Origin: Amphiscolops sp. MND2022
Taxonomy: Eukaryota
Reading direction: 5' to 3'
Length of the DNA: 64,000 bases
NCBI GenBank assembly: GCA_964187785.1
Contig: OZ076409.1
Location: forward strand, 15,316,001 to 15,380,000
Shown: piece after piece, positions 1,754-36,700 of the stretch
How positions within the stretch are numbered: position 1 is the stretch's first letter
Layout: each line of letters starts with the position of its first letter
The notes under the pieces: generated by a model
The model's database searches: none
Told to the model about the DNA's origin: nothing
Seen by the model: the letters and a program-made list of their open reading frames with translations, nothing else
Position numbers and translations under genes: made by a program

Positions 1754-1763
1754 CTGACAAAAA

Positions 1764-9508: not shown

Positions 9509-10288
9509 GATCATTGTAAAATCAATAGCTTTATATGCTTAACAACAAAATTACGTACAATGATACGAAAATTTTCTCGGTCAAAATACGCGTAACTTTT
9601 AAGTTAGTGCAGACTAGCTTGTTCCTTGTTCAAAAATTGGGCAGCAGACCACTTTCGCAGTCTGCTTTCAAATAAAACTTATCAATAGGGTTGGAATACT
9701 TACCTATTTAATAAGTTTATCACAACAATTAGGCTAAAAGCAAAGAGTCAATTTTTGGAGCGCGAGACTCCTATCTGCGGTACGGACTTACCATTACCAG
9801 CCAACAACTTGTTTTGAGGAGAAATTCTCATGAAAAGACGACGTTTCAAGTTATTGACATCTGATGAAACAAAAATATTCCAGAAAAATTGTGAGAAAGC
9901 AAAATTTTGACTCTATTACGAAAATGTATGCTGAAAAGCATAAATTAGTAAGCTTAAAAATGAAATTCCATGTATTATCAAAAGTCGACTCAGGAGTGTG
10001 AAAAACACGTTTTAGGGGTAATTTTGGGCCCTCTTTCCAATGCCGTTGTCCGTTTTTTGCTATCTGTTCATTTTGACCCCTTTTGCAAAACTGTCACCGA
10101 AGTTAAACCACATTTTGTGAAAATAGTAAAAATGACATAACTCAATGAAAATTCAAGTGATGGCGGCGAAAATTTCAGCATGGGGGTTTTTTTGGACGCT
10201 CTTTCCAATGCCGTTGTCCGTTTTTTGCTATCTGTTCATTTTGACCCCTTTTGCAAAACTGTCACCGAAGTTAAACCACATTTCTGAC

Positions 10289-10412: not shown

Positions 10413-10433
10413 GATCATTGTAAAATCAATAGC

Positions 10434-10439
10434 TTTATA
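10434..10439 (-). promoter_or_regulatory. Upstream TATA-like element of 5S gene (TATAAA at about -27..-22); example copy, present upstream of all ten genes
   Basis: Plus-strand gctttatatgc lies at a fixed distance from each gene start; upstream TATA-like elements are known for many metazoan 5S genes. Confidence 0.65.
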
Positions 10440-11691
10440 TGCTTAACAACAAAATTACGTACAATGATACGAAAATTTTCTCGGTCAAAATACGCGTAAC
10501 TTTTAAGTTAGTGCAGACTAGCTTGTTCCTTGTTCAAAAATTGGGCAGCAGACCACTTTCGCAGTCTGCTTTCAAATAAAACTTATCAATAGGGTTGGAA
10601 TACTTACCTATTTAATAAGTTTATCACAACAATCATATACATATATAAAGGGAGACCGGACAAATTCGCTGATTGGTTGAGATACGCTCGGTGATACGCG
10701 CTGCTGCACTACAGTTCAAAAGAAGTTTCCGAGATGAGCGGTGAGAAAATCTGTTTCTGACTTTCGAAATAGACGTTTCAGAATCTCCAGATCTAATCAA
10801 CTGTGGATAGCGTAGAGGTTGCGTGTTAGACTTTCAACCCAATGTCTTGAGTTCGATTCTCGCCATCGATTTTTTTTTCAAAAAAATTGTCAGCGTGAAC
10901 AGTCTTTTAAAAGCAATGGCGTTCTTCTTTTTCCTTAATGGTGCGCTTGCAACTACTGTTCAGCAAAAGATCGTGGCCTAGAGGTTGCGTTGGTTGTCAG
11001 GTTCGTCGGGTGTTATTCTGGTAGCTTTGGGTTCCATCCCCAGGATGGACATGGTTCAGCACTTGAATTGATAGTGTTATGGTTTAAACCCAACTTGATT
11101 GTTCATTTCGACACATACCGTATATAGGACTATAAGTTCGTTCATTATTTGAGTTGGGACGCTTATTTTGGAAGCGGCAAACTTTTCAACATAAAGATTT
11201 TTGGACTATTTCCAATAACGTTGTACTTTTTTTCACATCTCATCAACAGTCAATGACGTAGTGGTTGCGTGTTAGATTTCCATTCCAATGTCTTTAGTTC
11301 GATTCCCTCATTCAATTTTTTTAAAAAAACTTTGTCAGCGTGCACAGTCTTTCAAAAGCACTGGATTATTCTTTTCCCTTAGTGGTGCGCCTAAAACCAC
11401 TGTTTCGCAAGAGATCGTGGCCTAGAGGTTGCGTGGTTGTCAGGTTCGTCCGGTGTTATTCTGGTAGCTTTGGGTTCGATCCCCGGGAGGAACATTGTTC
11501 AGCTCTTAAATTGATAGTGTTATGGCTTACTTAAACCAACTTGATTGTTCATTTCGACACATTCCGTATATAGGATTATAAGTTCGTTCATTATTTGAAT
11601 TGGAACGCTTACTTTGGAAGCGGCAAAATTTTCAACATAAGGATTTTTGGACTCTTTCCAATAACGTTGTCGATTTTTTCACATCTTTTCA

Positions 11692-11760
11692 ACAGTCAAT
11701 GGCGTAGTGGTTGCGTGTTAGATTTCCATTCCAATATCTTGAGTTCGATTCCCTCAATCA
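11692..11760 (+). pseudogene. tRNA-like module 1 of the satellite monomer (example)
   Basis: A box TGGCGTAGTGG, weak anticodon-like arm ttaga-tttccat-tccaa, B box GAGTTCGATTC at tRNA spacing; no proper acceptor stem. Confidence 0.6.
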
Positions 11761-13182
11761 TAATTTTTTTTAAACTTTTGTCAGCGTGCACAGTCTTTCA
11801 AAAGCACTGGATTATTTTTTTCAATTAGTGGTGCGCCTAAAACCACTGTTTCGCAAGATATCGTGGTCTAGATGTTGCGTTGGTGGTTAGGTTTGGTATA
11901 GCGTTGCTCTGGTATCTTTGGGTTCGGTCCCCGGGGATGGAATGTTCCGCACTTGAATTGATGGAGTTTTTTTGCTTACACTTAACGTGGTTGTTTAATT
12001 CGACAAAAAGCGAATATAGCTTTCTGGATTCGCCCAAAAATTAGAATTGGAATGCTTAGTTTGGAAGCGGCAAAATTTTTCAACATAGGGATTTTTGGAC
12101 TCTTTCCAATAACGTTGTCCATTTTTTCACATCTTTTCAACAGTCAATGGCGTAGTGGTTGCGAGTTAGATTTCCTTTCCAAAGTGTTGAGGTAGTTTCC
12201 CTCTATCAAAACTTTTTCAAAAACTTAGTCAGCTTGGACAGTCTTTCAAAAGCACTGGATTATTCTTTTCCCTTAGTGGTACGCCTAAAACCACTGTTTC
12301 GCAAGATATCGTAGCCCAGAGGTTGCATTGGTGGTTAGGTTTGGTATAGCGTTGTTCTGGTATCTTTGGGTTCGTTCCCCGGGGATGGAATATGTTCCGC
12401 ACTTGAATTGATAGTTTTATTGCTTACACCCAACTTGGTTGTTTACTTCGACACATACCGAATATAGCATTCTAAATTCGTCCATAATTTGAATTGGAAT
12501 GCTTACTTTGGAAGCGGCAAATTTTCCAGCATAGGGCTTTTTGGGCTCTTTCCATTAACGTTGTCCTGTTTTTCACAGCTTTTCAACAGTCAATGGCGTA
12601 GTGTTTGCGTGTTAGATTTCCATTCCAAATTCTTGAGTTCGTTTCCCTCAATCAAAACTTTTTCAAATACTTAGTCAGCTTGGACAGTCTTTCAAAAGCA
12701 CTGGATTTTTCTTTTCCCTTAGTGGTACGCCTAAAACCACTGTTTCGCAAGATATCGTAGCCTAGAGGTTGCGTTGGTGGTTAGGTTTGGTATAGCGTTG
12801 TTCAGGTATCTTTGGGTTCGGTCCCCGGGGATGGAATTTGTTCCCACTTGAACTGATAGTGTTATTGCTTACACCCAACTTGGATGTTTAATTCGACACA
12901 TACCGAATATAGCATTCTGAATTGGAATGCTTAGTTTGGAAGCGACAAAATTTTCAACATAGGGATTTTTGAACTCTTTCCAATAACGTTGTCCATTTTT
13001 TCACATCTTTTCAACAGTCAATGGCGTAGTGGTTGCGTGTTAGATTTCCATTCCAAAGTCTTGAGTTCGTTTCCCTCAATCAAAACTTTTTCAAAAACTT
13101 AGTCAGCTTGGACAGTCTTTCAAAAGCACTGGATTATTCTTTTCCCTCAGTGGTGCGCCTAAAACGACTGTTTCGCAAGATA

Positions 13183-13262
13183 TCGTGGCCTAGAGGTTGC
13201 GTTGGTGGTTAGGTTTGGTGGAGCGTTGTTCTGGTATCTTTGGGTTCGGTCCCCGGGGATGG
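13183..13262 (+). pseudogene. tRNA-like module 2 of the satellite monomer (example)
   Basis: A-box-like TGGCCTAGAGG and B-box-like GGTTCGGTCC (GGTTCGATCC in some monomers) with longer spacing. Confidence 0.5.
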
Positions 13263-16200
13263 CACTTGTTCCTCACTTGAATTGATAGAGTTTTACTGCT
13301 TACACCCAACGTGGTTGTTCAATTCGACACATACCGAAAATAGCTTTCTGAATTCGTCCAAATTTAGAATTGGAATGCTTACTTTGGAAGCGACAAATTT
13401 TTCAACATAGGGATTTTTGAACTCTTTCCAATAACGTTGTCCATTTTTTCACATTTTTTCGACAGTCAATGGCGTAGTGGTTGCGTGTTAGATTTCCATT
13501 CCAAAGTCTTGAGTTCGTTTCCCCCAATCAGAACTTTTTCAAAAACTTAGTCAGCTTGGACAGTCTTTCAAAAGCACTGGGTTATTCTTTTCCCTCAGTG
13601 GTGCGCCTAAAACCACTGTTTCGCAAGATATCGTGGCCTAGAGGTTGCGTTGGTGGTTAGGTTTGGTGGAGCGTTGTTCTGGTATCTTTGGGTTCGGTCC
13701 CCGGGGATGGCATTTGTATCTCACTTGAATTGATAGAGTTTTACTGCTTACACCCAACGTCGTTGTTTAATTCGACACATACCGAATATGGCTTTCTGAA
13801 TTCGTCCAAAATTAGAATTGGAATGCTTACTTTGGAAGCGGCAAATTTTTCAACATAGGGATTTTTGGACTCTGTCCAATGACGTTGTCCTTTTTTCCAC
13901 ATCTTTTCAACACAGCAATGGCGTAGTGGTTGCGTGTTAGATTTCCATTCCATTGTCTTGAGTTCGTTTCTCTCAATCAAAAATTTTTTAAAAACTTAGT
14001 CAGCTTGGACAGTCTTTCAAAAGCACTGGATTATTCTACTCCCTTAGTGGTACGCCTAAAACCACTGTTTCGCAAGATATCGTAGCCTAGAGGTTACGTT
14101 GGTGGTTAGGTTTGGTATAGCGTTTTTCAGGTATCTTTGGGTTCGGTCCCCGGGGATGGAATATGTTCCCACTTGAATTGATAGTGTTATTGCTTACACA
14201 CAACTTGGATGTTTAATTCGACACATACCGAATATAGCATTCTGATTTCGTCCACAATTTGAATTGGAATGCTTAGTTTGGAAGCAACGAAATTTTCAAC
14301 ATAGGGGTTTCTGAACTCTTTCCAATAACGTTGTCCAATTTTTCACATCTTTTCAACAGTCAATGTCGTAGTGGTTGCGTGTTAGATTTCCATTCCAAAG
14401 TCTTGAGTTCGTTTCCCTCAATCAAAACTTTTTCAAAAACTTAGTCAGCTTGGACAGTCTTTCAAAAGCACTGGATTATTCTTTTCCCTCAGTGGTGCGC
14501 CTAAAACGACTGTTTCGCAAGATATCGTGGCCTAGAGGTTGCGTTGGTGGTTAGGTTTGGTGGAGCGTTGTTCTGGTATCTTTGGGTTCGGTCCCCGGGG
14601 ATGGCACTTGTTCCTCACTTGAATTGATAGAGTTTTACTGCTTACACCCAACGTGGTTGTTTAATTCGACACATATCGATTATAGCTTTCTGAATTCGTC
14701 CAAATTTAGAATTGGAATGCTTACTTTGGAAGCGACAAAATTTTCAACATAGGGATTTTTGAACTCTTTCCAATAACGTTGTCCATTTTTTCACATCTTT
14801 TCGACAGTCAATGGCGTAGTGGTTGCGTGTTAGATTTCCATTCCAATGTCTTGAGTTCGATTCCATCAATCAAAACTTTTTCAAAAACTTAGTCAGCTTG
14901 GACAGTCTTTCAAAAGCATTGGATTATTCTTTTTCCTCAGTGGTGCGCCTAAAACGACTGTTTCGCAAGATATCGTGGTCTAGAGGTTGCGTTGGTGGTT
15001 AGGTTTGATGGAGCGTTGTTCTGGTATCTTTGGGTTCGGTCCCCGGGGATAGCATTTGTTCCTCACTTGAATTGATAGAGTTTTACTGCTTACACCCAAC
15101 GTGGTTGTTCAATTCGACACATACCGAAAATAGCTTTCTGAATTCGTCCAAATTTAGAATTGGAATGCTTACTTTGGAAGCGACAAATTTTTCAACATAG
15201 GGATTTTTGAACTCTTTCCAATAACGTTGTCCATTTTTTCAGCTTTTTTCGACAGTCAATGGCGTAGTGGTTGCGTGTTAGATTTCCATTCCAAAGTCTT
15301 GAGTTCGTTTCCCCCAATCAGAACTTTTTCAAAAACTTAGTCAGCTTGGACAGTCTTTCAAAAGCACTGGGTTATTCTTTTCCCTCAGTGGTGCGCCTAA
15401 AACCACTGTTTCGCAAGATATCGTGGCCTAGAGGTTGCGTTGGTGGTTAGGTTTGGTGGAGCGTTGTTCTGGTATCTTTGGGTTCGGTCCCCGGGGATGG
15501 CATTTGTATCTCACTTGAATTGATAGAGTTTTACTGCTTACACCCAACGTCGTTGTTTAATTCGACACATACCGAATATGGCTTTCTGAATTCGTCCAAA
15601 ATTAGAATTGGAATGCTTACTTTGGAAGCGGCAAATTTTTCAACATAGGGATTTTTGGACTCTGTCCAATGACGTTGTCCTTTTTTCCACATCTTTTCAA
15701 CACAGCAATGGCGTAGTGGTTGCGTGTTAGATTTCCATTCCATTGTCTTGAGTTCGTTTCTCTCAATCAAAAATTTTTTAAAAACTTAGTCAGCTTGGAC
15801 AGTCTTTCAAAAGCACTGGATTATTCTACTCCCTTAGTGGTACGCCTAAAACCACTGTTTCGCAAGATATCGTAGCCTAGAGGTTGCGTTGGTGGTTAGG
15901 TTTGGTATAGCGTTTTTCAGGTATCTTTGGGTTCGGTCCCCGGGGATGGAATATGTTCCCACTTGAATTGATAGTGTTATTGCTTACACACAACTTGGAT
16001 GTTTAATTCGACACATACCGAATATAGCATTCTGATTTCGTCCACAATTTGAATTGGAATGCTTAGTTTGGAAGCAACGAAAATTTCAACATAGGGATTT
16101 TTGAACTCTTTCCAATAACGTTGTCCTTTTTTTCACATCTTTTCAACAGTCAATGGCGTAGTGGTTGCGTGTTAGATTTCCATTCCAAAGTCTTGAGTTC

Positions 16201-19064
16201 GTTTCCCTCAATCAAAATTTTTTCAAAAACTTAGTCAGCTTGGACAGTCTTTCAAAAGCACTGAATTATTCTTTTCCATCAGTGGTGCGCCTAAAACCAC
16301 TGTTTCGCAAGATATCGTGGCCTAGAGGTTGCGTTGGTGGTTAGGTTTGGTGGAGCGTTGTTCTGGTATCTTTGGGTTCGGTCCCCGGGGATAGCATTTG
16401 TTCCTCACTTGAATTGATAGAGTTTTACTGCTTACACCCAACGTGGTTGTTCAATTCGACACATACCGAAAATAGCTTTCTGAATTCGTCCAAATTTAGA
16501 ATTGGAATGCTTACTTTGGAAGCGACAAATTTTTCAACATAGGGATTTTTGAACTCTTTCCAATAACGTTGTCCATTTTTTCAGCTTTTTTCGACAGTCA
16601 ATGGCGTAGTGGTTGCGTGTTAGATTTCCATTCCAAAGTCTTGAGTTCGTTTCCCCCAATCAGAACTTTTTCAAAAACTTAGTCAGCTTGGACAGTCTTT
16701 CAAAAGCACTGGGTTATTCTTTTCCCTCAGTGGTGCGCCTAAAACCACTGTTTCGCAAGATATCGTAGCCTAGAGGTTGCGTTGGTGGTTAGGTTTGGTA
16801 TAGCGTTTTTCAGGTATCTTTGGGTTCGGTCCCCGGGGATGGAATATGTTCCCACTTGAATTGATAGTGTTATTGCTTACACACAACTTGGATGTTTAAT
16901 TCGACACATACCGAATATAGCATTCTGATTTCGTCCACAATTTGAATTGGAATGCTTAGTTTGGAAGCAACGAAAATTTCAACATAGGGATTTTTGAACT
17001 CTTTCCAATAACGTTGTCCATTTTTTCACATCTTTTCAACAGTCAATGGCGTAGTGGTTGCGTGTTAGATTTCCATTCCAAAGTCTTGAGTTCGTTTCCC
17101 TCAATCAAAATTTTTTCAAAAACTTAGTCAGCTTGGACAGTCTTTCAAAAGCACTGAATTATTCTTTTCCATCAGTGGTGCGCCTAAAACCACTGTTTCG
17201 CAAGATATCGTGGCCTAGAGGTTGCGTTGGTGGTTAGGTTTGGTGGAGCGTTGTTCTGGTATCTTTGGGTTCGGTCCCCGGGGATGGCATTTGTTCCTCA
17301 CTTGAATTGATAGAATTTTACTGCTTACACCCAACGTAGTTGTTTAATTCGACACATAACGAATATAGCTTTCTGAATTCGTCCAAAATTAGAATTGGAA
17401 TGCTTTTTTTGGAAGCGGCAACTTTTTCAACATAGGGATTTTTGGACTCTGTCCAATAATGTTGTCCATTTTTTCACATCTTTTCAACAGGCAATGGAGT
17501 AGTGGTTGCGTGTTAGATTTCCATTCCAATGTCTTGAGTTCGATTCCCTCAATCAAAAATTTTAAAAAAAATTTGTCAGCGTGGAAAGTCTTTCGAAAGC
17601 ACTGGAATATTCTTTTACCTTAGTGGTGCGCATAAAACCGCTGTTTCGCAAGATATCGTTGCCTAGAGGTTGCGTTGGTGGTTAGGTTTGGTATAGCGTT
17701 GTTCTGGTATCTTTGGGTTCGGTCCCTGGGGAAGGAATATGTCCCGCACTTGAATTCATAGTGTTATTTCTTACACCCAACTTGGTTGTTCACTTCGACA
17801 AATACCGAATATAGCATTCTGTATTCGTCCATAATTTGAATTGGAATGCTTAGTTTGGAAGCGGCGAAATTTTCAACATAGGGATTTTTGGACTCTTTCC
17901 AATAACGTTGTCCATTTTTTCACATCTTTTCAACAGTCAATGGCGTAGTGGTTGCGTGTTAGATTTCCATTCCAATGTCTTGAGTTATATTCACTCAATC
18001 ATAATTTTTTTTAAAAACTTTGTCAGCGTGCACAGTCTTTTAAAAGAACTGGATTTTTCTTTTCCCTTAGTGGTGCGCCTAAAACCAATGTTTCGCAAGA
18101 TATTGTGACCTAGAGGTTGCGTGGTGGTCAGGTTCGCTCGTGTGTTATTTTGGTACATTTAGGTTCGATTCCCGGGATGGACTTGGATACGCACTTGATT
18201 TGATAGTTTGGTTTTGCTTTCACCCAATTTGGTTGTTCCACACGTCAAGACTCTAAGTGCTTTTATAAACCAAAATCCATGTGCTTTTGGGAAAAAGTAC
18301 GTCCACTATCGCGGAGTTTTAATCAACAACCGATAGCGTAGAGGTTGCGTATCAGATTCTCATTCCAATGTCTAGCGTTCGATCCCCTATATCGATTTGT
18401 TTTTCAAACTTTGAACAATGAACAGTCTTTCAAAAGCACTGAATTTTTCTTTTTTCTCAGTGGTGAGCTAAATGCCACTGTTTCGCAAGATATCGTGGCC
18501 TAAAATTATTTACGTTGGTGGATTGGATCGTTAGAGTTCTTATGTGTTTGTTGTCTAGCTTTGTCTTTTTCGAAGCGCTCTGAAGGAATAGTTAAGATCT
18601 TACAGGCCTTTGAAATCCATGACCTGGGTGTTTTCAGGGGAGATGTCCACCATCATCAACCGATAGCGTAGAGGTTACGTACTAGCCTCTCATTTCAATG
18701 TCTTGAGTTCGATTCTCTCTAGCAACTTTGTTTTTCAAACTTCTCTTTCCCTCATCCAATGGTAAGTCCACTATCACATAGCTGCAACCAACAGTGGATG
18801 GTGAAGAGGTCGTGTACTAGGCTCTCATAACAACTGCTTGAGTTCGAAACCCTCAATCAACTTTTTTTTCGCAGAATGTCATCGTGCTTCTGGAACATTG
18901 TCTGCAAAGTTAAACCACGTTTTTTGACAAAGTCAATAAAGTCCACGAAATCAAGTGCAGACATTCAGTCAACATTCCATAGAAGGCAGAAACAATTTCA
19001 AAGTTCGTGGTAGTTTGAGATTTTTTCCAATGCAGTTATACATTCGTTTCCATTAAATAGGATC

Positions 19065-21985
19065 CTCAATCAAAACTTTTTTAAAGACGTTGTCAGCGTG
19101 GACAGTCTTTCAAAAGCACTGGATTATTCTTTTCCCTCAGTGGTGCGCCTAAAACCGCTGTTTCGCAAGATATCGTGGCCTAGAGGTTGCGTTGGTGGTT
19201 AGGTTTGGTGGAGCGTTGTTCTGGTATCTTTGGGTTCGGTCCCCGGGGATGGCATTTGTTCCTCACTTGAATTGATAGAGTTTTACTGCTTACACCCAAC
19301 GTGGTTGTTTAATTCGACACATACCGAATATAGCTTTCTGAATTCGTCCAAAATTAGAATTGGAATGCTTACTTTGGAAGCGGCAAATTTTTTAACATAG
19401 GAATTTTTGGACTCTGTCCAATAACGTTGTCCATTTTTTCACATCTTTTCAACAGTCAATGGCGTAGTGGTTACGTGTTAGATTTCCATTCCAAAGTCTT
19501 GAGTTCGTTTCCCTCAATCAAAATTTTTTCAAAAAATTAGTCAGCTTGGACAGTCTTTCAAAAGCACTGGATTATTCTTTTCCCTCAGTGGTGCGCCTAA
19601 AACCATTGTTTTGCAAGATATCGTGGCCTAGAGGTTGCGTTGGTGGTTAGGTTTGGTGGAGCGTTGTTCTGGTATCTTTGGGTTCGGTCCCCGGGGATGG
19701 CATTTGTTCCTCACTTGATTTGATAGAGTTTTACTGCTTACACCCAACGTGGTTGTTTAATTCGACACATACCGAATATAGCTTTCTGAAGTCGTCCAAA
19801 ACTGAAAATGAAATGCTTACTTTGGAAGCGGCAAATTTTTCAACATAGGGATTTTTGGATTCTTTCCAATCACATTGTCCCTTTTTTCACATCTTTTCAA
19901 CAGTCAATGGCGTAGTGGTTGCGTGTTAGATTTCCATTTTAATGTCTTGAGTTCGATTCCCTCAATCAAAACTTTTTTAAAAACGTTGTCAGCGTGGACA
20001 GTTTTTCAGAAGCACTGGATTATTCTTTTCCCTTAGTGGTGCGCCTTAAACCACTGTTTCGCAAGATATCGTAGCCTAGAGGTTGCGTTGGGATTAGGTT
20101 TGGTATAGCGTTGTTCTGGTATTTTGGGTTCCGTCCCCGGGGATGGAATTTGTTCCGCACTTGAATTGATAGAGTGTTATTGCTTACACCCAACGTGGTT
20201 GTTTAATTCGACACATACCGAATATAGCTTTCTGATTTCGTCCAAAGTTTTAATTAGAATGCATACTTTGGAAGTGGCAAATTTTTCAACATAGGGAATT
20301 TTGGACTCTTTCCATTCACATTGTCCCTTTTTTCACATCTTTTCAACAGTCAATGGCGTAGTGGTTGCGTGTTAGATTTCCATTTCAATGTCTTGAGTTC
20401 GATTCCCTCAATCAAAACTTTTTAAAAACGTTGTCAGCGTGGACAGTTTTTCAGAAGCACTGGATTATTCTTTTCCCTTAGTGGTGCGCCTTAAACCTTT
20501 GTTTCGCAAGATATCGTAGCCTAGAGGTTGCGTTTGGATTAGGTTTGGTATAGAGTTGTTCTGGTATTTTGGGTTCCGTCCCCGGGGATGGAATTTGTTC
20601 CGCACTTGAATTGATAGAGTGTTATTGCTTACACCCAACTTGGATGTTTTATTCGACACATACCGAATATAGCTTTCTGAATTCGTCCAAAATTAGAATT
20701 GGAATGCTTACTTTGGAAGCGGCAAATTTTTCAACATAGGGATTTTTGGACTCTGTCCAAAAACATTGTCCATTTTTTCACATCTTTTCAACAGGCAATG
20801 GAATAGTGGTTGCGTGTTAGATTTCCATTCCAATGTCTTGAGTTCGATTCCCTCAATCAAAACTTTTTAAAAAACTTAGTCAGCGTGGAAAGTCTTTAGA
20901 AAGCACTGGAATATTCTTTGCCCTTAGTGGTGCGCATAAAACCACTGTTTCGCAAGATATCGTGGCCTAGAGGTTGCGTTGGTGGTTAGGTTTGGTATAG
21001 CGTTGTTCTGGTATCTTGGGTTCGGTCCCCGGGGATGGAATTTGTTCCGCACTTGAATTGATAGAGTGTTATTGCTTACACCCAACGTGGTTGTTTAATT
21101 CGACACATACCGAATATAGCTTTCTGAAGTCGTCCAAAACTGAAAATGAAATGCTTACTTTGGAAGCGGCAAATTTTTCAACATAGGGATTTTTGGATTC
21201 TTTCCAATCACATTGTCCCTTTTTTCACATCTTTTCAACAGTCAATGGCGTAGTGGTTGCGTGTTAGATTTCCATTTTAATGTCTTGAGTTCGATTCCCT
21301 CAATCAAAACTTTTTTAAAAACGTTGTCAGCGTGGACAGTTTTTCAGAAGCACTGGATTATTCTTTTCCCTTAGTGGTGCGCCTTAAACCACTGTTTCGC
21401 AAGATATCGTAGCCTAGAGGTTGCGTTGGGATTAGGTTTGGTATAGCGTTGTTCTGGTATTTTGGGTTCCGTCCCCGGGGATGGAATTTGTTCCGCACTT
21501 GAATTGATAGAGTGTTATTGCTTACACCCAACGTGGTTGTTTAATTCGACACATACCGAACATAGTTTTCTGAATTCGTCCAATTTTTGAATTGGAAAGC
21601 TTACTTTGGAAGCGGCAAAAATTTCAACATAGGGATTTTTGGACTCTTTCCAATAACGTTGTACATTTTTTCACGTCTTTTCAACAGTCCATGGCGTAGT
21701 GGTTGCGTGTTAGATTTCCATTCCAATGTCTTGAGTTCGATTCCATCAATCAAAACTTTTCAAACAACGTTGTCAGCGTGGACAGTCTTTCGAAGGCACT
21801 GGAGTATTCTTTTCTCTTAGTGGTGCGCCTAAAACCACTGTTTCGCAAGATATTGTGGCCTAGAGGTTGCGTGGTGGTCAGGTTCGTTCGGGTGTTATTT
21901 CGGTACATTTGGGTTCGATTCCCTGGATGGACTTGGATACGCACTTGAGTTGATAGTTTGGTTTTGCTTCCACCCAAATTGGTTG
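19065..21985 (+). repeat. ~446-bp satellite, array B of element 1 (~6-7 monomers)
   Basis: Same monomer resumes after an ~820-bp interruption. Confidence 0.9.
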
Positions 21986-24900
21986 TTCAATTTAATTGTT
22001 GTATAATGGTTGTTCAATGGTTGTATAAAAGGAAATTCGTATGATAATTGAACACTAATAATTCCTTCTGACTTTGGCCTTTCCTTTGCTGAATTGCTCA
22101 AACGTCAAGACTCGAAATGCTTTTATAAACCAAAATCCATGTGCTTTTGGGAAAAAGGACGTCCACTATCAAGGAGTTTGAATCAACAACCGATAGCGTA
22201 GAGGTTGCGTATCAGATTCTCATTCCAATGTCTAGAATTCCTCTTTTGTTAAACCTTCCAAACCTTCTTCTGTTAAACATTTGACATTTGTCACTAATGG
22301 AGTTTCACTTGAACTCAGCTTCCAAATCTTTTGATTTTGAATTTTTGAAATCCACGTCGAAAAGATATGTGTAGTTTGTATAAACTAGATAGTTCATATT
22401 GGACACACTTGAAGGACCTGAAGTCAAATCACTTCAGTAACTCTTATTTGCTATATCTGAAATGAAGATGTGATCATCGAAAGACATTTCTTCAGAATGG
22501 AGTCCAGACAACAGACTATAGCGCGGAGGTAACGTAGTTGGCTCTTAGCCAGATGGCATTGTGTTCGAATTCCTCTACCACTTTTTTGTTCAACGATAAG
22601 ATGGAGCACAAGATCACTCTTTAGTCCAGATAAAACAGGCAATTAGTATTCAAAACTGCGTGTATTCGAAGAAGAGACGTCCACTATCACGGATCGCCAA
22701 TCCACCACTGATAGCGTAGAGGTTACGAACTAGGCTCTCATTACAGTGTCTTGAGATCGATTCTCTCTATAACTTTATTTTTCAAAACTTTGTCAGCGTG
22801 AACAACCTTTGAAAAGTTCTCGGGTTGTTTCATTCTTTTAGTGGCCAGACTGCATCCACTGTTTTGCATGATGTCAAGGCCTAGAAGCTGCCTTGGTGAT
22901 CAAGTTCGTTTAGGTATTGTTCGGGTATCTCTGGGTTCGATTCTCAATTGAAGGTATACGTAAACAAAAGTAGAGTCACAAAAACCTATATCCGAACAAG
23001 TTATTGTAAAGTAGTGACTTTTTACATCTGGGTACCTAAAGTCTGTGCTTAAAGTCGGAAACAATCGACATACAGTCGATGCATATTCTCCATGGCGCAC
23101 GTGTTGTCCACTATCACGCAGCTTGAATAAAAAACCGTTAGCGTAAAGGTTGCGTATCAAACGTTGCTTCCAATGCCTTGAGTTTGATCCCCTCTATCGA
23201 TCTTCTTCTTTCAAATATTGTCAGCGTCAACAGTCTTTCAAAAGTACTAATTTCAAAAGACTGCTCTTTTTTCTTAGTGGTTCCCTAACAACCACTGTGT
23301 TTCAAGATATCGTGGCCTAGAGGTTACGTTGGTGGATGATTTTGTTGGAGTGTTGTTCTGGTAGCTTTGTATTCGATCCCCGGGGTGGACATGCATCCAC
23401 ACTTGTGTTGGTACTTTGGTTTTCTTTTCACCCAGCATGGTTATTTAATTTGGCATTAATCATAAAGGCCAAACGCCGTTGAATAATTGAATACCAAACA
23501 TTCCTTTGGACTTTGCCTTTTCCTGTTCTGGATCTCGCAAACGTCAAGACTCTAAGAGCTTTTAGAAACCAAAATCCGGGTGTTTTTGCAAAAGAGGCGT
23601 CCACAATCACGGACCTTCAATCAACAAACAATAGCGTAGAGGTTGCGTGTCAGATTCTCATTCCAAAGCCTTGAGTTCGCTTCCCTCTATCAACATTGTT
23701 TTTCTATTTTTAGTTCACATTTTCCTATGCTAAATTCACTATTACATAGCTGCAATCAACAGGGGGTGGTGCAGAGGTTGTGTACTAGGCTCTCATAATA
23801 ATCGCTCGAGTTCGAAACCCTTTGTTCAACTTTTGTTTGGCAATGAATGCGATCGTGATTCTGCAACAATGTCACCGAAGTTAAACCACCTTTTCTGACG
23901 AAGTTTTCGACAGAAAAGTAATGACAAAATTAATTAACAAAAAAGAAGAGGACAGTCATTGGAAGGCAACACAAATTACAGCATGGAAGTTTTCGTGGAC
24001 ACCCTCGCCAATGGTTTTGTTTATTTTCTCCCATTTCTTCAATTTGACCCACTTTGCAACAGTTTCACTGAAGTTAAACCACTTTTTACGACAAAATGAA
24101 AACATGACATCACTCAGTGAAGATTCGAGTGATGGCGGCAACAGTTTCACCATGGGGGTTTGTTTGGACACTCTTTCCGATGGTGGCGTCCGTTTTTTCC
24201 AGTCTTTTCAATATGACCCCCTTTGCAAAACTGTCACCAAAGTTAAGCCACTTTTCTTGACAAAAACGCTACAACAGCGTAAAAATTTTGATGGAGCCTC
24301 TCTCTAACGTTGTTTTTTACTTTGTTCCATATGTTCAACCTGACTATTTTTGCAACACTGCTCCGATGCTAAAAACTGTTGTTTTGTGTTCTCTATCACA
24401 TAGCTGCAATCAATAATGGATGGTGCAGAGGTTGTGTACTAGGCTCTCATAACAATCGCTCGAGTTCGAGACCCTTTAGTCAACATTTGTTTTGCAAAGA
24501 ACGCGATCGTGATTCTGCAACGAAGGTAAACCACGTTTTTTGGAAAAGTCTAGAAACCACAAAGTTATGACCATACAATTCAACAAAAACGCAGAGAACA
24601 CTCATTGGATGGCACAAAAAAAACAGCATAGAAGGTTTCGTGGACACCCCTTTTCAATGGCAATGTCTATTTTCTTCCATTTGTTTTTCAATTTTACCCA
24701 TTTTGCAGCACGGTCACCTAAATTGAAGCTCACTTTTTGACAAAATGAACTAAGGCATAACTCAGTGAAATTTCCAAAGAACGCAGCAAAACTTTTACCA
24801 TGAGGATTTTACCGCTTTTTCCAATGCTGTTCTCCAATTTTTAACATTTTATCAATTTGACTCACTTTGCAAATCTGTCATCAAAGTTAAACCACGTTTC

Positions 24901-25746
24901 TTGACAAAAACGCTAAAACAGCGTGGGAGTTTTGGTGGACGGTCACTCCAACGTTGTTGTCCACTTTTTTCCATTTTTCTTGAATACTTTTGAAACACTG
25001 CTCTGACGCTAAACTTGTTTTGTGTTCACTATCACATAGGTGCAATCAACAGTGGATGGCGCAGAGGTCGTGTACTAAATTCCCATAACATTCGCTTGAG
25101 TTCGAAACCCTCAGTCAACTTTTGTACTGCAAAGTATTTATACAGGCAAGTAGTATTCAAAATTTGTGTGTATTCGAAGAAGAGACGTCCACTATCACGG
25201 ATCTCGAATCAACGACCGATGGCGTAGAGGTTGCGTGCTAGGCTCTCATTCCAGTGTCTTGAGATCGATCCTCTCTCTCGATTTTTTTCTTTCACATATT
25301 GTCAGCGTGAACAGCCTTTCAAAAGCACTAGGCCACTCTTTTCTTTTAGTGGTTCGCTTACAACCAATGTTTTGCAAGATCTCGTGGCCTAGAGGTTACG
25401 TTGGTGGTCAGGTTCGTTAGAGTGTTGTTCTGGTAGCTTTGGGTTCGATCCCCGGGTTGAACTTGGATCAGCACTTGAATTGATAGTTTGGTTTTCCTTT
25501 AACCCAACTTTTGTTAAATTTGACATTAATCATATAGGGCAAATGTTGTTGAACTATTGAATACCAAAAATTCCTTTGGACTTCGGCTTTTCCTTTTCTG
25601 GATTACTCGAAGGTCAAGACTCTAAATGCTTTTAGAAAGCAATATCCGGATGTTTTCGGAAAAGAGGCATCTACTATCATGGATAACAGTTTGGAATTTT
25701 CTCATTCACTTTTTGATATCTCATATTTAACAAACCTCTTTAATTA
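21985..25746 (+). repeat. 3' region of element 1: mosaic of diverged tRNA-like modules and 5S-spacer-like segments (orthologous to ~45150-48886 in element 2)
   Basis: Repeated ccactatcac...TRGCGTAGAGG...GTTCGA modules at ~22161, 22680, 23106, 23600, 24394, 25026, 25187. Confidence 0.75.
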
Positions 25747-25775
25747 GCCGCCGGAGGCGGCAGCGGGTTTGCTAG
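25747..25775 (+). other. Helitron 3' terminal hairpin and CTAG
   Basis: 6-bp GC stem GCCGCC/GGCGGC with 3-nt loop, 10 nt before CTAG; in element 2 the difference falls in the loop. Confidence 0.85.
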
Positions 25776-27363: not shown

Positions 27364-27719
27364 GATCATTGTAAAATCAATAGCTTTATATGCTTAACAA
27401 CTCGGTCAAAATACGCGAAACTTTTAAGTTAGTGCAGACTAGCTTGTTCCTTGTTCAAAAATTGGGCAGCAGACCACTTTCGCAGTCTGCTTTCAAATAA
27501 AACTTATCAATAGGGTTGGAATACTTACCTATTTAATAAGTTTATCACAACAATCATATACATATATAAAGGGAGACCGGACAAATTCGCTGATTGGTTG
27601 AGATACGCTCGGTGATACGGGCTGCTGCACTACAATTCAAAAGAAGATTCCGAGATGAGCGGTGAGAAAATCTGTTTCTGACTTTCGAAATAGACGTTTC
27701 AGAATCTCCAGCTCTAATC

Positions 27720-30700
27720 AACGGTGGATAGCGTAGAGGTTGCGTGTTAGACTCTCAACCCAATGTCTTGAGTTCGATTCTCGCCATCGATCTTTTTTTT
27801 TTAAAAAAATGTCAGCGTGAACAGTCTTTTAAAAGCATTGACGTTCTTCTTTTTCTTTAATGGTGCGCTTGCAACTACTGTTCAGCAAGAGATCGTGGCC
27901 TAGAGGTTGCGTTGGTTGTCAGGTTCGTCTGGTGTTATTCTGGTAGCTTTGGGTTCCATCCCCGGGATGGACATGGTTCAGCACTTGAATTGATAGTGTT
28001 ATGGCTTAAACCCAACTTGATTGTTCATTTCGACACATACCGTATATAGGACTATAAGTTCGTTCATTATTTGAATTGGAACGCTTATTTTGGAAGCGGC
28101 AAATTTTTCAACTTAAGGATTTTTGGACTATTTCCAATAACGTTGTACTTTTTTTCACATCTCATCAACAGTCAATGACGTAGTGGTTGCGTGTTAGATT
28201 TCCATTCCAATGTCTTGAGTTCGATTCCCTCATTCAATTTTTTTAAAAAAAACTTTGTCAGCGTGCACAGTCTTTCAAAAGCACTGGATTATTCTTTTGC
28301 CTTAGTGGTGCGCCTAAAACCACTGTTTCGCAAGAGATCATGGCCTAGAGGTTGTGTGGTTGTCAGGTTCGTCGGGTGTCATTCTGGTAGCTTTGGGTTC
28401 GATCCCCGGGATGAACATGGTTCAGCACTTAAATTGATAGTGTTATGGCTTAAACCCAACTTGATTGTTCATTTCGACACATACCGTATATAGGACTATT
28501 AGTTCGTTCAATATTTGAATTGGAACGCTTACTTTGGAAGCGACAAATTTTTCAACATAAGGATTTTTGGACTCTTTCCAATAACGTTGTACTTTTTTTC
28601 ACATCTCCACAACAGTCAATGGCGTAGTGGTTGCGTGTTAGATTTCCATTCCAATGTCTTGAGTTCGATTCCCTCAATCAAAACTTTTTTAAAAACGTTG
28701 TCAGCGTGGACAGTCTTTCAAAAGCACAGGATTATTCTTTTCCCTCAGTGGTGCGCCTAAAACCACTGTTTCGCAAGATATCGTAGCCTAGAGGTTGCGT
28801 TGGTGGTTAGGTTTGGTAGAGCGTTGTTCTGGTATCTTTGGGTTCGGTCCCCGGGAGTGGCATTTGTTCCTCACTTGATTTGATAGAGTTTCAGTGCTTA
28901 CACCCAACGTGGTTGTTTAATTCGACAAGAACTGAATATAGCTTTCTGAATTCGTCCAATATTTGAATTGGAATGCTTACTTTGGAAACGGCAAAATTTT
29001 CAACATAGGGATTTTTGGACTCCTTCCAGTAACGTTGTCTATTTTTTCACATCTTTTCAATAGTCAATGGCGTAGTGGTTGCGTGTTAGATTTCCATTCC
29101 CATATCTTGAGTTCAATTCTCTCAATCATATTTTTTTAAAAAAATTTGTCAGCGTGCACAGTCTTTCAAAAGCACTGGATTATTCTTTTCAATTAGTGGT
29201 GCGCCTAAAACCACTGTTTCGCAAGATATCGTGGCCTAGAGGTTGCGTTGGTAGTTAGGTTTGGTATAGCGTTGTTCTGGTATCTTTGGGTTCGATCCCC
29301 GGGGATGGAATTTGTTCCGCACTTGAATTGATGGAATTTTATTGCTTACACCTAACGTGGTTGTTTAATTCGACAAAAACCGAATATAACTTTCTGAATT
29401 CGCCCAAATTTGAATTGGAATGCTTACTTTGGAAGCGGCAAATTTTTCAACATAGGGATTTTTTGACTCTTTCCAATAACGTGGTATATTTTTCACATCT
29501 TTTCAACAGTCAATGGCGTAGTGGTTGCGTGTTAAATTTCCATTCCAATGTCTTGAGTTCGATTCCCTCAATTAAAACTTTTTTAAAAACGTTGCCAGCG
29601 TGGACAGTCTTTCAGAAGCACGGGATTATTCTTTTGCCTTAGTGGTGCGCCTAAAACCACTGTTTCGCAAGAGATCATGGCCTAGAGGTTGTGTGGTTGT
29701 CAGGTTCGTCGGGTGTCATTCTGGTAGCTTTGGGTTCGATCCCCGGGATGAACATGGTTCAGCACTTAAATTGATAGTGTTATGGCTTAAACCCAACTTG
29801 ATTGTTCATTTCGACACACACCGTATATAGGACTATTAGTTCGTTCAATATTTGAATTGGAACGCTTACTTTGGAAGCGACAAATTTTTCAACATAAGGA
29901 TTTTTGGACTCTTTCCAATAACGTTGTACTTTTTTTCACATCTCCACAACAGTCAATGGCGTAGTGGTTGCGTGTTAGATTTCCATTCCAATGTCTTGAG
30001 TTCGATTCCCTCAATCAAAACTTTTTTAAAAACGTTGTCAGCGTGGACAGTCTTTCAAAAGCATAGGATTATTCTTTTCCCTCAGTGGTGCGCCTAAAAC
30101 CACTGTTTCGCAAGATATCGTGGCCTAGAGGTTGCGTTGGTGGTTAGGTTTGGTAGAGCGTTGTTCTGGTATCTTTGGGTTCGGTCCCCGGGAGTGGCAT
30201 TTGTTCCTCACTTGATTTGATAGAGTTTCAGTGCTTACACCCAACGTGGTTGTTTAATTCGACAAGAACTGAATATAGCTTTCTGAATTCGTCCAATATT
30301 TGAATTGGAATGCTTACTTTGGAAACGGCAAAATTTTCAACATAGGGATTTTTGGACTCCTTCCAGTAACGTTGTCCATTTTTTCACATCTTTTCAATAG
30401 TCAATGGCGTAGTGGTTGCGTGTTAGATTTCCATTCCCATATCTTGAGTTCAATTCTCTCAATCATATTTTTTTAAAAAAATTTGTCAGCGTGCACAGTC
30501 TTTCAAAAGCACTGGATTATTCTTTTCAATTAGTGGTGCGCCTAAAACCACTGTTTTGCAAGATATCGTGGCCTAGAGGTTGCGTTGGTGGTTAGGTTTG
30601 GTATAGCGTTGTTCTGGTATCTTTGGGTTCGGTCCCCGGGGTGGAATTTGTTGCGCACTTGAATTGATAGAGTTTTATTGCTTACACCCAACGTGGTTGT

Positions 30701-33700
30701 TTAAGTCGACACATACCGAATACAGCTTTCTGAATTCGTCCAAAATTAGAATTGGAATGCTTACTTTGGAAGCGGGAAATTTTTCAACATAGGGATTTTT
30801 TAAACTCTTTCCAATAACGTGGTATATTTTTCACATCTTTTCAACAGTCAATGGCGTAGTGGTTGCGTGTTAAATTTCCATTCCAATGTCTTGAGTTCGA
30901 TTCCCTCAATTAAAACTTTTTTAAAAACGTTGCCAGCGTGGACAGTCTTTCAGAAGCACTGGATTATTCTTTTCCCTCAGTGGTGCGCCTAAAACCACTG
31001 TTTCGCAAGATATCGTGGCCTAGAGGTTGCGTTGGTGGTTAGGTTTTGTATAGCGTTGTCCTGGTATCTTTGGGTTCCGTCACCGGGGATGGAATTTGTT
31101 CCGCAGTTGAATTGATAAAGTTTTATTGCTTACACCCATCGTGGTTGTTTAATTCGACACCGAATATAGCTTTCCGAATTTGTCAAAAATTAGAATTGGA
31201 ATGCTTAGTTTGGAAGCGGCAAAATTTTCAACATAGGGATTTTTGGACTCTTTCCAATAACGTTGCCCATTTCTTTCACATCTTTTCAATGTCAATGGCG
31301 TAGTGGTTGCGTGTTTATTATCCATTCCAACGTCTTGAGTTCGATTCCCTCAACCAAAACTTTTTCAAAAACGTTGTCAGCGTGGACAGTTTTTCAGAAG
31401 CACTGGATTATTCTTTTCCCTTAGTGGTGCGCCTAAAACCACTGTTTTGCAAGATATCGTGGCCTAGAGGTTGCGTTGGTGGTTAGGTTTGGTATAGCGT
31501 TGTTCTGGTATCTTTGGGTTCGGTCCCCGGGGTGGAATTTGTTGCGCACTTGAATTGATAGAGTTTTATCGCTTACACCCAACGTGGTTGTTTAAGTCGA
31601 CACATACCGAATACAGCTTTCTGAATTCGTCCAAAATTAGAATTGGAATGCTTACTTTGGAAGCGGGAAATTTTTCAACATAGGGATTTTTTGACTCTTT
31701 CCAATAACGTGGTATATTTTTCACATCTTTTCAACAGTCAATGGCGTAGTGGTTGCGTGTTAAATTTCCATTCCAATGTCTTGAGTTCGATTCCCTCAAT
31801 TAAATTTTTTTTAAAAACGTTGCCAGCGTGGACAGTCTTTCAGAAGCACGGGATTATTCTTTTGCCTTAGTGGTGCGCCTAAAACCACTGTTTCGCAAGA
31901 GATCATGGCCTAGAGGTTGTGTGGTTGTCAGGTTCGTCGGGTGTCATTCTGGTAGCTTTGGGTTCGATCCCCGGGATGAACATGGTTCAGCACTTAAATT
32001 GATAGTGTTATGGCTTAAACCCAACTTGATTGTTCATTTCGACACACACCGTATATAGGACTATTAGTTCGTTCAATATTTGAATTGGAACGCTTACTTT
32101 GGAAGCGACAAATTTTTCAACATAAGGATTTTTGGACTCTTTCCAATAACGTTGTACTTTTTTTCACATCTCCACAACAGTCAATGGCGTAGTGGTTGCG
32201 TGTTAGATTTCCATTCCAATGTCTTGAGTTCGATTCCCTCAATCAAAACTTTTTTAAAAACGTTGTCAGCGTGGACAGTCTTTCAAAAGCACAGGATTAT
32301 TCTTTTCCCTCAGTGGTGCGCCTAAAACCACTGTTTCGCAAGATATCGTGGCCTAGAGGTTGCGTTGGTGGTTAGGTTTGGTAGAGCGTTGTTCTGGTAT
32401 CTTTGGGTTCGGTCCCCGGGAGTGGCATTTGTTCCTCACTTGATTTGATAGAGTTTCAGTGCTTACACCCAACGTGGTTGTTTAATTCGACAAGAACTGA
32501 ATATAGCTTTCTGAATTCGTCCAATATTTGAATTGGAATGCTTACTTTGGAAACGGCAAAATTTTCAACATAGGGATTTTTGGACTCCTTCCAGTAACGT
32601 TGTCCATTTTTTCACATCTTTTCAATAGTCAATGGCGTAGTGGTTGCGTGTTAGATTTCCATTCCCATATCTTGAGTTCAATTCTCTCAATCATATTTTT
32701 TTAAAAAAATTTGTCAGCGTGCACAGTCTTTCAAAAGCACTGGATTATTCTTTTCAATTAGTGGTGCGCCTAAAACCACTGTTTCGCAAGATATCGTGGC
32801 CTAGAGGTTGCGTTGGTAGTTAGGTTTGGTATAGCGTTGTTCTGGTATCTTTGGGTTCGGTCCCCGGGGATGGAATTTGTTCCGCACTTGAATTGATGGA
32901 ATTTTATTGCTTACACCTAATGTGGTTGTTTAATTCGACAAAAACCGAATATAGCTTTCTGAATTCGCCCAAATTTGAATTGGAATGCTTACTTTGGAAG
33001 CGGCAAATTTTTCAACATAGGGATTTTTTAAACTCTTTCCAATAACGTGGTATATTTTTCACATCTTTTCAACAGTCAATGGCGTAGTGGTTGCGTGTTA
33101 AATTTCCATTCCAATGTCTTGAGTTCGATTCCCTCAATTAAAACTTTTTTAAAAACGTTGCCAGCGTGGACAGTCTTTCAGAAGCACTGGATTATTCTTT
33201 TCCCTCAGTGGTGCGCCTAAAACCACTGTTTCGCAAGATATCGTGGCCTAGAGGTTGCGTTGGTGGTTAGGTTTTGTATAGCGTTGTCCTGGTATCTTTG
33301 GGTTCCGTCACCGGGGATGGAATTTGTTCCGCAGTTGAATTGATAAAGTTTTATTGCTTACACCCAACGTGGTTGTTTAATTCGACACATACCGAATATA
33401 GCTTTCCGAATTTGTCAAAAATTAGAATTGGAATGCTTAGTTTGGAAGCGGCAAAATTTTCAACATAGGGATTTTTGGACTCTTTCCAATAACGTTGCCC
33501 ATTTCTTTCACATCTTTTCAATGTCAATGGCGTAGTGGTTGCGTGTTTATTATCCATTCCAACGTCTTGAGTTCGATTCCCTCAACCAAAACTTTTTCAA
33601 AAACGTTGTCAGCGTGGACAGTTTTTCAGAAGCACTGGATTATTCTTTTCCCTTAGTGGTGCGCCTAAAACCACTGTTTTGCAAGATATCGTGGCCTAGA

Positions 33701-36700
33701 GGTTGCGTTGGTGGTTAGGTTTGGTATAGCGTTGTTCTGGTATCTTTGGGTTCGGTCCCCGGGGTGGAATTTGTTGCGCACTTGAATTGATAGAGTTTTA
33801 TTGCTTACACCCAACGTGGTTGTTTAAGTCGACACATACCGAATACAGCTTTCTGAATTCGTCCAAAATTAGAATTGGAATGCTTACTTTGGAAGCGGGA
33901 AATTTTTCAACATAGGGATTTTTGGACTCTTTCCAATAACGTTGTCCATTTTTTCACATCTTTTCAACAGTCAATGTCGTAGTGGTTGCGAGTTAGATTT
34001 CCATTCCAAAGTCTTGAGGTCGTTTCCCTCAATCAAAACTTTTTCAAAAACTTAGTCAGCTTGGACAGTCTTTCAAAAGCACAGGATTTTTCTTTTCCCT
34101 TAGTGGTACGCCTAAAACCACTGTTTCGCAAGATATCGTAGCCTAGAGGTTGCATTGGTGGTTAGGTTTGGTATAGCGTTGTACTGGTATCTTTGGGTTC
34201 GGTCCCCGGGGATGGAATATGTTCCGCACTTGAATTGATAGTTTTATTGCTTACACCCAACTTGGTTGTTTACTTCGACACATACCGAATATAGCATTCT
34301 GAATTCGTCCGTATTTTGAATTGGAATGCTTACTTTGGAAGCGGCAAATTTTTCAATATAGGGATTTTTGGACTCTTTCCAATAACGTTGTCCACTTTTT
34401 CACATCTTTTCAACAGTCAATGGCGTAGTGGTTGCGTGTTAGATTTCCATTCCAAGGTCTTGAGTTCGTTTCCCTCAATCAAAACTTTTTCAAATACTTA
34501 GTCAGCTTGGACAGTCTTTCAAAAGCACTGGATTATTCTTTTCCCTTAGTGGTACGCCTAAAACCACTGTTTCGCAAGATATCGTAGCCTAGAGGTTGCG
34601 TTGGTGGTTAGGTTTGGTATAGCGTGGTTCTGGTATCTTTGGGTTCGGTCCCCAAGGATGGAATATATTCCGCACTTGATTTGATAGTGTTATTGCTTAC
34701 ACCCAACTTGGTTGTTTACTTCGACACATACCGAATATAGCATTCTGAATTCGTCCATAGTTTGAATTGGAATGCTTAGTTTGGAAGCGACAAAATTTTC
34801 AACATAGGGGTTTCTGAACTCTTTCCAATAACGTTGTCCAGTTTTTCACATCTTTTCAACAGTCAATGTCGTAGTGGTTGCGTGTTAGATTTCCATTCCA
34901 AAGTCTTGAGTTCGTTTCCCTCAATCAAAACTTTTTCAAAAACTTAGTCAGCTTGGACAGTCTTTCAAAAGCACTGGATTATTCTTTTCCCTCAGTGGTG
35001 CGCCTAAAACCACTGTTTCGCAAGATATCGTAGCCTAGAGGTTGCGTTGGTGGTTAGGTTTGGTATAGCGTGGTTCTGGTATCTTTGGGTTTGGTCCCCA
35101 AGGATGGAATATATTCCGCACTTGATTTGATAGTGTTATTGCTTACACCCAACGTGGTTGTTTAATTCGACACATACCGAATATAGCTTTCTGAATTCGT
35201 CCAAAAATAGAATTGGAATGCTTACTTTGGAAGCGGCAAATTTTTCAACATAGGGATTTTTGGACTCTGTCCAATAACGTTGTCCAATTTTTCACATATT
35301 TTCAACAGGCAATGGCGTAGTGGTTGCGTGCTAGATTTCCATTCCAAAGTCTTGAGGTCGTTTCCCTCAATCGAAACTTTTTCAAAAACTTAGTCAGCTT
35401 GGACAGATTTTCAAAAGCACTGGATTATTCTTTTCCCTTAGTGGTACGCCTAAAACCACTGTTTCGCAAGATATCGTAGCCTAGAGGTTGCGTTAGTGGT
35501 TAGGTTTGGCATAGCGTTGTTCTGGTGTCTTTGGGTTCGATCCCCGGGGATGGAATATGTTCCGCACTTGAATTGATAGTGTTATTGCTTACACCCAACT
35601 TGGTTGTTTACTTCGACACATACCGAATATAGCATTCTGAACTCGTCCATAATTTGAATTGGAATGCTTAGTTTGGAAGCGGCGAAATTTTCAACATAGG
35701 GATTTTTGGACTCTTTCTAATAACGTTGTCCATTTTTTCACATCTTTTCAACAGTCAATGGCGTAGTGGTTGCGTGTTAGATTTCCATTCCAATGTCTTG
35801 AGTTCGTTTCTCTCAATCAAAACTTTTTTAAAAACTTAGTCAGCTTGGACAGTTTTTCAAAAGCACTGGATTATTCTACTCCCTTAGTGGTACGCCTAAA
35901 ACTACTGTTTCGCAAGATATCGTAGCCTAGAGGTTGCGTTGGTGGTTAGGTTTGGTATAGCGTTGTTCTGGTATCTTTGGGTTCGGTCCCCGGGGATGGA
36001 ATATGTTCCGCACTTGAATTGATAGTTTTATTGCTTACACCCAACTTGGTTGTTTACTTCGACACATACCGAATATAGCATTCTGATTTCGTCCATATTT
36101 TGAATTGAAATGCTTACTTTGGAAGCGGCAAATTTTTCAACATAGGGATTTTTGGACTCTTTCCATTAACGTTGTCCAATTTTTCACATCTTTTCAACAG
36201 TCAATGGCGTAGTGGTTGCGTGTTAGATTTCCATTCCAAGGCTTGAGTTCGTTTCCCTCAATCAAAACATTTTCAAAAACTTAGTCAGCTTGGACAGTCT
36301 TTCAAAAGCACTGGATTATTCTTTTCCCTCAGTGGTGCGCCTAAAACCACTGTTTTGCAAGATATCGTGGCCTAGAGGTTGCGTTGGTGGTTAGGTTTGG
36401 TGGAGCGTTTTTCTGGTATCTTTGGGTTCGGTCCCTGGGGATGGCATTTGTATCTCACCTGAATTGATAGAGTTTTACTGCTTACACCCAACATGGTTGT
36501 TTAATTTGACACATACCGAATATAGCTTTCTGAATTCGTCCAAAAATAGAATTGGAATGCTTACTTTGGAAGCGGCAAATTTTTCAACATAGGGATTTTT
36601 GGACTCTGTCCAATAACGTTGTCCATTTTTTCACATCTTTTCAACAGGCAATGGCGTAGTGGTTGCGTGCTAGATTTCCATTCCAAAGTCTTGAGGTCGT

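Follow-up and report, generated by a model that had tools for sequence, protein, structure and literature searches.

A segment of non-autonomous Helitrons homologous to the 3' flank of the 5S rRNA gene in a 5S rDNA array of Amphiscolops sp.

The window analysed here, a stretch of 64,000 nucleotides from contig OZ076409.1 of Amphiscolops sp. MND2022, is an animal-type 5S rDNA array with ten 5S genes, all on the minus strand, and a repeat unit of 904 bp. The genes match the Rfam model RF00001 with 108-117.5 bits, one of them lying at 1764..1882, and the 3' flank of this gene, composed of the spacer sub-repeats A and B and the terminator, occupies together with the gene tip positions 1507..1774 (plus strand). 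Among eight of the 10 units, differences are confined to 0-15 of about 897 columns; left out of this comparison are the unit at 1198 and a unit with a 30-bp deletion. In the former (1198-2095), 26-33 columns depart from the other units, chiefly within the gene and upstream of it, and its gene is the one with the weakest Rfam match (108 bits). The latter starts at 26680, just ahead of the second of the elements described below, and lacks 30 bp at about 27400, approximately 40 nt upstream of the 5S gene. The first units of the array are 1.6 kb longer, the extra DNA being found at 2096-3739 and also at 4638-6281, 7180-8823 and 1-1197. This extra stretch sits at nearly the same spacer site as the Helitrons, its edges form a decayed direct repeat of about 17 bp, it bears no likeness to the elements, and none of the four frames tested had a Pfam match; the 904-bp unit may be derived from the long unit through deletion.

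Three elements are inserted at the same base of the 5S spacer (3/3), all in plus orientation: element 1 (10633..25775, 15.1 kb), element 2 (27554..48915, 21.4 kb), with the same ends and the same site in the 5S unit, and element 3 (51626..64000), which shares the 5' end and the site and is cut by the window end. The 5' terminal TC follows the target A in all three, and both complete elements terminate with CTAG, a motif of the CTRR type, preceded by a GC stem of 6 bp that ends 10 nt before it; in element 1 this hairpin (stem 25747-25761) and the terminal CTAG occupy 25747..25775 (plus strand). Insertion took place between A and T with no target duplication, the empty site in element-free junctions being equal to the joined flanks of elements 1 and 2. 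A 5' TC, a 3' hairpin with CTRR and an A|T site free of duplication are the marks of canonical Helitrons in the accessible part of PMC6544945, and all three of these end features are present here. No open reading frame of at least 150 aa exists within the window, hence the elements are non-autonomous, an autonomous Helitron being distinguished by a Rep-helicase frame for which the window offers no candidate of that length. A stop-free frame of 140 codons at 23885-24307 and five other frames likewise showed no Pfam match (0/6).

Our alignments revealed an internal segment of these elements that is homologous to the host locus. As the original prediction had it, 24064-24276 of element 1 is colinear with 1564-1774 of the spacer, including the terminator and the last nine or so nucleotides of the 5S gene: 176 of 215 columns are identical in a global alignment and the terminal 9-mer is exact. 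A longer local alignment joins 24008..24276 (plus strand) to 1507-1774 with 216/271 identical columns and covers the end of a module a, a module b, the terminator run and the 5S tip. Against the 904-bp unit the alignment scores 236, far above the mean of 22 and the maximum of 33 reached in 1000 dinucleotide shuffles searched on both strands, and is therefore significant. The segment has the orientation of the element, and in the spacer it lies 301-575 bp downstream of the insertion point. Its orthologues in element 2, which the prediction had also announced, are found in block I (47154..47422, plus strand; 79.6% over 270 columns to the unit) and in block II (47791..48064, plus strand; 72% over 279 columns). 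A search of 22500-25800 for a 5S gene gave no match at E up to 10.

The alignment enters the 5S gene by 11 nt, where the 9-mer is identical, the preceding base differs and the terminator run is one base shorter. These nine bases (24268..24276, plus strand) are the antisense of the 5S 3' tip and fall within a small hairpin at 24261-24290 (-6.5 kcal/mol). The 9-mer occurs at four places in the elements, always at this junction, three times exactly and once with one change. From base frequencies, the chance of its standing at a fixed position is about 2e-6, a value that overstates the case, since module c starts 3 nt inside the tip and a 10-mer of module b (24135-24144) is 8/10 like the junction, so that seven of the nine tip bases can be read as module sequence.

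The shared segment belongs to a larger family. A profile of a module of about 168 bp, built from copies in the window, gave 123 matches at E <=0.01, all on the plus strand and all in an element or 5S unit context (123/123): 103 in the three elements and 20, two per unit, in the 5S units. The prediction of one captured fragment thus holds with respect to homology and not with respect to number, the module being a building block of the whole element and the shared segment its best-preserved copy, not a lone captured piece. Near the 3' end of element 1 stand two tandem blocks of about 650 bp, in each of which a tRNA-like head precedes modules a, b and c. In block I (23739..24393, plus strand), 24064-24276 corresponds to module b and the start of c. 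Block II (24394..25029, plus strand) is an old tandem duplicate of block I (491/629 identical), with its own copy of the flank and of the tip (8/9 in element 1, 9/9 in element 2). The array runs on past the 5S tip into module c (24274..24364, plus strand; 3-nt overlap), which is a true family member: a profile built from other copies than c finds it in four of four places with E-values of 2e-10 to 6e-7, that of this copy being 2e-10. A truncated third block, with head, motif and part of a module, was found at 18772..19054 (plus strand). The degenerate copies that had been noted near 23860-24060 and 24510-24925 are present at 23809-24094, 24511-24685 and 24648-24919; that list was correct as far as it went and missed the copies at 24274-24364, 24917-25010 and 18880-19054 as well as the satellite pieces of about 76 bp.

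The majority of the element matches, 83 in number, are such pieces of about 76 bp within a satellite with units of 446-448 bp, which in element 1 extends over 10810..18237 (plus strand). Each unit contains two tRNA-like heads and one module piece (e.g., 17859-17935), and the copy number amounts to 16.7, 34.7 and 17.7 units in elements 1, 2 and 3, respectively. The module has multiplied within the element: the a-b-c array came first, and later the module was amplified along with entire blocks and within the 446-bp satellite; tandem duplication would have built both the blocks and the satellite. The satellite piece is closest to spacer B in 78 of 83 copies, a count that we do not take as support, as these copies have one common origin and the gap is 2-3 sites. 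The single match of a 20-letter module motif in a metagenome collection showed no further likeness to the window and was set aside as chance.

The tRNA-like heads are of two types, with 115 and 95 matches, all on the plus strand, alternating with the modules; they crowd the elements (10810-25460 in element 1 and the corresponding parts of elements 2 and 3), and none stands in the 5S units. The head that opens block I (23765..23825, plus strand), with A-box-like and B-box-like parts, is identical to that of block II at 56/61 positions. On the Rfam tRNA model, whose cut-off is 29 bits, no head scores above 24.6, and ARAGORN finds 0 tRNA genes, so that the heads are tRNA-like and not genes. An A-box pattern and a B-box pattern were both matched by 49/115 and 17/95 heads, and several copies of the first type have what we take to be a Met-like anticodon loop. 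The alternation of same-strand heads and modules, together with the tRNA likeness of the best heads, is what would be expected if an independent dispersed repeat, such as a SINE-like composite of tRNA and 5S, had entered both the spacer and the Helitron; a putative tRNA-derived SINE has been described from a fish 5S spacer in the available portion of PMC3464664. We consider such a third source quite unlikely, for it leaves the end of the homology in the 5S terminator and tip unexplained, no head stands beside the spacer copies, and inspection by eye found no poly-A tail or target duplication at the module ends. We also asked whether remains of an a-type linker or of a tRNA-like head persist in decayed form in the spacer, and dropped the idea, the scores being non-significant: 118-283 of 500 shuffles reached them, and profiles for linker and head on the spacer gave no match or, at 1.7 bits, were equalled in 5/300.

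Besides the terminator and the tip, which the original prediction had recognized as 5S-derived, the module bears a second mark of the 5S gene that had been overlooked. In each spacer sub-repeat, 5S nt 43-62 (the box A region) recur in inverted orientation with 19/20 identical positions (10094..10113 in sub-repeat A and 10262..10281 in sub-repeat B, both on the plus strand), whereas 400 Markov-shuffled spacers gave at most 16/20. The copy closer to the gene is found 13 nt beyond the gene end, with 70 nt between the arms, and a short inverted copy beside its source would be the expected trace of a local template switch. In the elements, 16 copies of the motif scored 11-18/20 against 5S nt 43-62; motif 3 of the shared segment (24234..24253, plus strand) is a decayed copy with 16/20, and its sister motifs at 23872 and 24065 reach 18/20 and 17/20. 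At one box A position, both the gene and the module have A. Most animals have G at this position, as do plants. The latter is documented by the plant 5S box A consensus in the consulted part of PMC7215508. Motif 1 was also considered as the remainder of a longer 5S fragment (nt 20-62) and rejected: the 34/48 matches include gaps, and the additional ones are mostly module tail. The nearer inverted copy and its surroundings (10262-10370) recur in every unit, where a read-through 5S transcript or a single strand could pair with the internal promoter region.

The presence of two 5S marks in one module favours an origin in the 5S flank. The tip points in the same direction, because the 9-mer continues the alignment unbroken and the element cannot have shaped this end of the gene, which is bound by pairing with the 5' end of the 5S rRNA. 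Furthermore, the similarity of the spacer copy to the other module types is about equal to or above that of module b (0.68, 0.56 and 0.67 against a, c and the satellite piece, compared with 0.65, 0.53 and 0.65 for b), which fits a slowly changing source. We therefore regard it as moderately probable that the segment originated in the 5S flank and is passenger DNA inside a non-autonomous Helitron; the weights given to the four explanations discussed here are judgements and not computed values. The proposal of an old capture from 5S rDNA was thus upheld in its old shared ancestry, and its direction is the likelier one, with neither placement rejected by the module tree.

This tree, drawn with midpoint rooting from copies in the window only and with no outgroup, is also where the evidence for the reverse direction is to be found. 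Modules group by position (a with a, 99.8/99), and grouping by block is rejected (p-AU 0.0001), which makes the a-b-c array older than the split between the spacer and b; module c is 0.53-0.57 alike to a, b or the spacer, and its two copies are 0.78 alike to each other. Judged from these comparisons, the module family is deeper in the element than the spacer's split from it, which speaks against the 5S origin. In the best tree the neighbour of the spacer is module b of block I (80.8/69; 5 sites versus 1 and 2 of 119), the placement expected if the transfer went from the element to the spacer. In the topology test the spacer outside the b pair is not rejected, however (p-AU 0.18 versus 0.72 for the best tree), so that its nesting with block I b is not significant.

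On the spacer side, sub-repeats A and B are identical at 90/92 positions, and A is a young copy of B; it matches module b at 74/92 and module a at 66/92 positions and is thus nearer to b. The present-day spacer contains neither an a-type nor a c-type module, and, with A a young copy of B and nearer to b, today's spacer alone cannot have supplied a and c. All this would be in keeping with a module native to the element or its ancestor, a piece of the array having become the present terminator and flank of the 5S gene by recombination at a 13/14-nt microhomology with its 3' end and then having been spread by the 5S array. The 103/123 module matches within elements agree with such a course, as does the fact that the array runs unbroken across the junction in the element, whereas in the spacer the gene interrupts it; a transposon origin has been argued for repeats of the 45S rDNA spacer in PMC10319768. 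The transfer into the spacer would nevertheless presuppose that a long microhomology already existed precisely where the gene stops and that nothing of the former flank survived; the 5S box A copy, whose best-preserved version is that of the spacer, would also need another source of earlier date. We see the transfer as a real possibility, though a less probable one than the uptake of flank DNA by the element. For two other stretches of the spacer, 9729-10014 and 10413-10632, the elements contain nothing convincingly similar (best E 0.039 and 0.36, respectively), which also speaks against a 5S origin.

If the 5S flank is the source, the following course may be proposed. The module would have arisen beside the 5S gene, where a short local template switch put the inverted box A copy into the flank. 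An ancestor of the element, located in or near the 5S array, would then have taken up flank DNA through template switching or gap repair, as in filler-DNA formation; copying would have stopped about 10 nt within the gene, and the tract would have been joined again to a module at a microhomology of 2-3 nt. Filler-DNA capture with junctions of 2-13 bp is known from insect Helitrons, and internal tandem repeats are known from Helitrons and Helentrons, as stated in the parts of PMC6544945 and PMC13553610, respectively, that were available. The uptake presumably preceded the duplication of blocks I and II and possibly comprised more than one event; its source may have been a single capture from a spacer then richer in sub-repeats, or repeated pick-up, and the spacer would later have overwritten sub-repeat A with B. 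A simpler path is end bypass, in which an element at today's site would have continued beyond its 3' end and included the downstream spacer as far as the 5S tip. This path has the strand and the side of the insertion point in its favour and follows a standard Helitron model (PMC6544945). It is nonetheless very improbable. The elements lack the 285 bp that immediately follow the site, with which simple read-through from the present site does not fit; the tract is internal, 1.5 kb from the 3' end, and in a fold scan of element 1 a hairpin before CTRR|T was found only at 25775.

Whatever its direction, the exchange long predates the separation of the present elements. The 3' arms of elements 1 and 2 agree at 96.1% of positions (3602/3747), a divergence of 3.9%, whereas the divergence from the spacer amounts to 20-27%, so that the suggested association with this locus well before the present insertions is confirmed as old shared ancestry. 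In the b region the spacer is 80-82% alike to block I and 73% to block II, and the two blocks are 74-75% alike to each other, according to which the exchange would be about as old as the block duplication. The segment probably encodes nothing and would be a record of the long residence of a Helitron lineage at the 5S locus.

Several known systems resemble these elements in part. Like the insect non-autonomous Helitrons of the Hel1 type, they have the terminal TC, the hairpin with CTRR, the A|T site with no duplication and foreign DNA with short junction homology (PMC6544945, in the portion available); unlike them, they share DNA with the flank of the same array that harbours them, have it multiplied into about a hundred internal modules and measure 15-21 kb. 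Long head-to-tail internal arrays with a copy number that varies between elements are found also in Helitron/Helentron elements whose internal repeats seed satellites (DINE-TR1 and 154TR, cited in PMC13553610); the present elements differ from these in their canonical Helitron ends and in a unit made up of tRNA-like heads and part of the 5S-flank module. The Cassandra TRIM, as described in the consulted part of PMC7215508, is likewise non-autonomous, carries 5S-derived sequence and clusters at or near 5S loci; in contrast to this LTR retroelement, whose promoter consists of boxes A and C, our elements have nothing more of the 5S unit than the flank, the tip and 20 nt of box A. A promoter-competent 5S head containing both boxes, as in SINE3 or Cassandra, is absent, the only match being to nt 43-62 on the plus strand. 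Starships at 5S genes are present as copies at one fixed nucleotide. The same holds for Dada-5S and Pokey, of which several copies occupy one fixed nucleotide of a multicopy RNA gene unit (PMC8869645, available part). Dada-5S, Pokey and the Starships use DDE or tyrosine recombinases and insert inside the gene, while the present elements are of rolling-circle type and lie in the spacer. The element belongs to neither Cassandra nor Dada-5S/Pokey and behaves like a non-autonomous Helitron that has acquired and multiplied local DNA.

The list of target-specific DNA transposons in the accessible part of PMC8869645 names no Helitron. Full-text searches of a literature collection with few subscription papers found no Helitron at a fixed 5S spacer site or carrying 5S flank. 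Three copies at one base of the 5S spacer that contain spacer pieces diverged by 20-45% would be a dated record of long residence at a multicopy locus. If the transfer went from the element to the spacer, this would be a tangible example of a functioning 5S array whose terminator and flank came from a transposon; if the copies descend from one old insertion that the array multiplied and the module is a widespread repeat, the case would be that of an ordinary capture or remnant.

The common insertion point of the three elements raises the matter of targeting. To our knowledge, Helitrons have no target preference beyond A|T. The homology-assisted targeting that had been put forward found no direct support: the shared segment lies about 300 bp from the insertion point, is 80% alike and the A|T joins are clean. 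Variants shared between units follow neighbourhood in the array and not adjacency to an element, and the elements, with the divergence given above, are more diverged than the units, a pattern to be expected both from independent insertions and from a single old insertion that unequal crossing-over multiplied during homogenisation of the units. A further and unlikely reading is that a Helitron lineage long resident in 5S rDNA also homes to it, its body being a selected array of pol III promoter mimics (the tRNA-like A and B boxes, the 5S box A copy, and the 5S terminator and tip) that draw it to 5S clusters by TFIIIC/TFIIIA binding or by pairing. A hint in this direction comes from the uneven conservation between blocks I and II: heads (56/61 and 52/60), motif 1 (27/30) and motif 3 with the junction (52/57 and 56/57) are 87-98% identical, compared with 65-81% for linkers and tails. 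The best window of 57 columns, a length chosen post hoc, was reached in 9/20000 permutations for element 2 and 116/20000 for element 1. Gene conversion between tandem blocks could give the same pattern.

Two further observations concern the bodies of the elements. About 280 bp at 22240-22520 (approximately 45390-45660 in element 2) belong to no module; one frame of this stretch was tested and had no Pfam match, 199/200 positions are identical between elements at 22390-22589, and a captured host fragment may be involved. Elements 1 and 3 are closest to each other at the 5' end (149/150) and in the middle (97-99%), with element 2 further off, whereas in the first satellite units element 1 is closer to element 2; this mosaic (10633-11240, 18230-19070 and the orthologues) suggests exchange between the copies.
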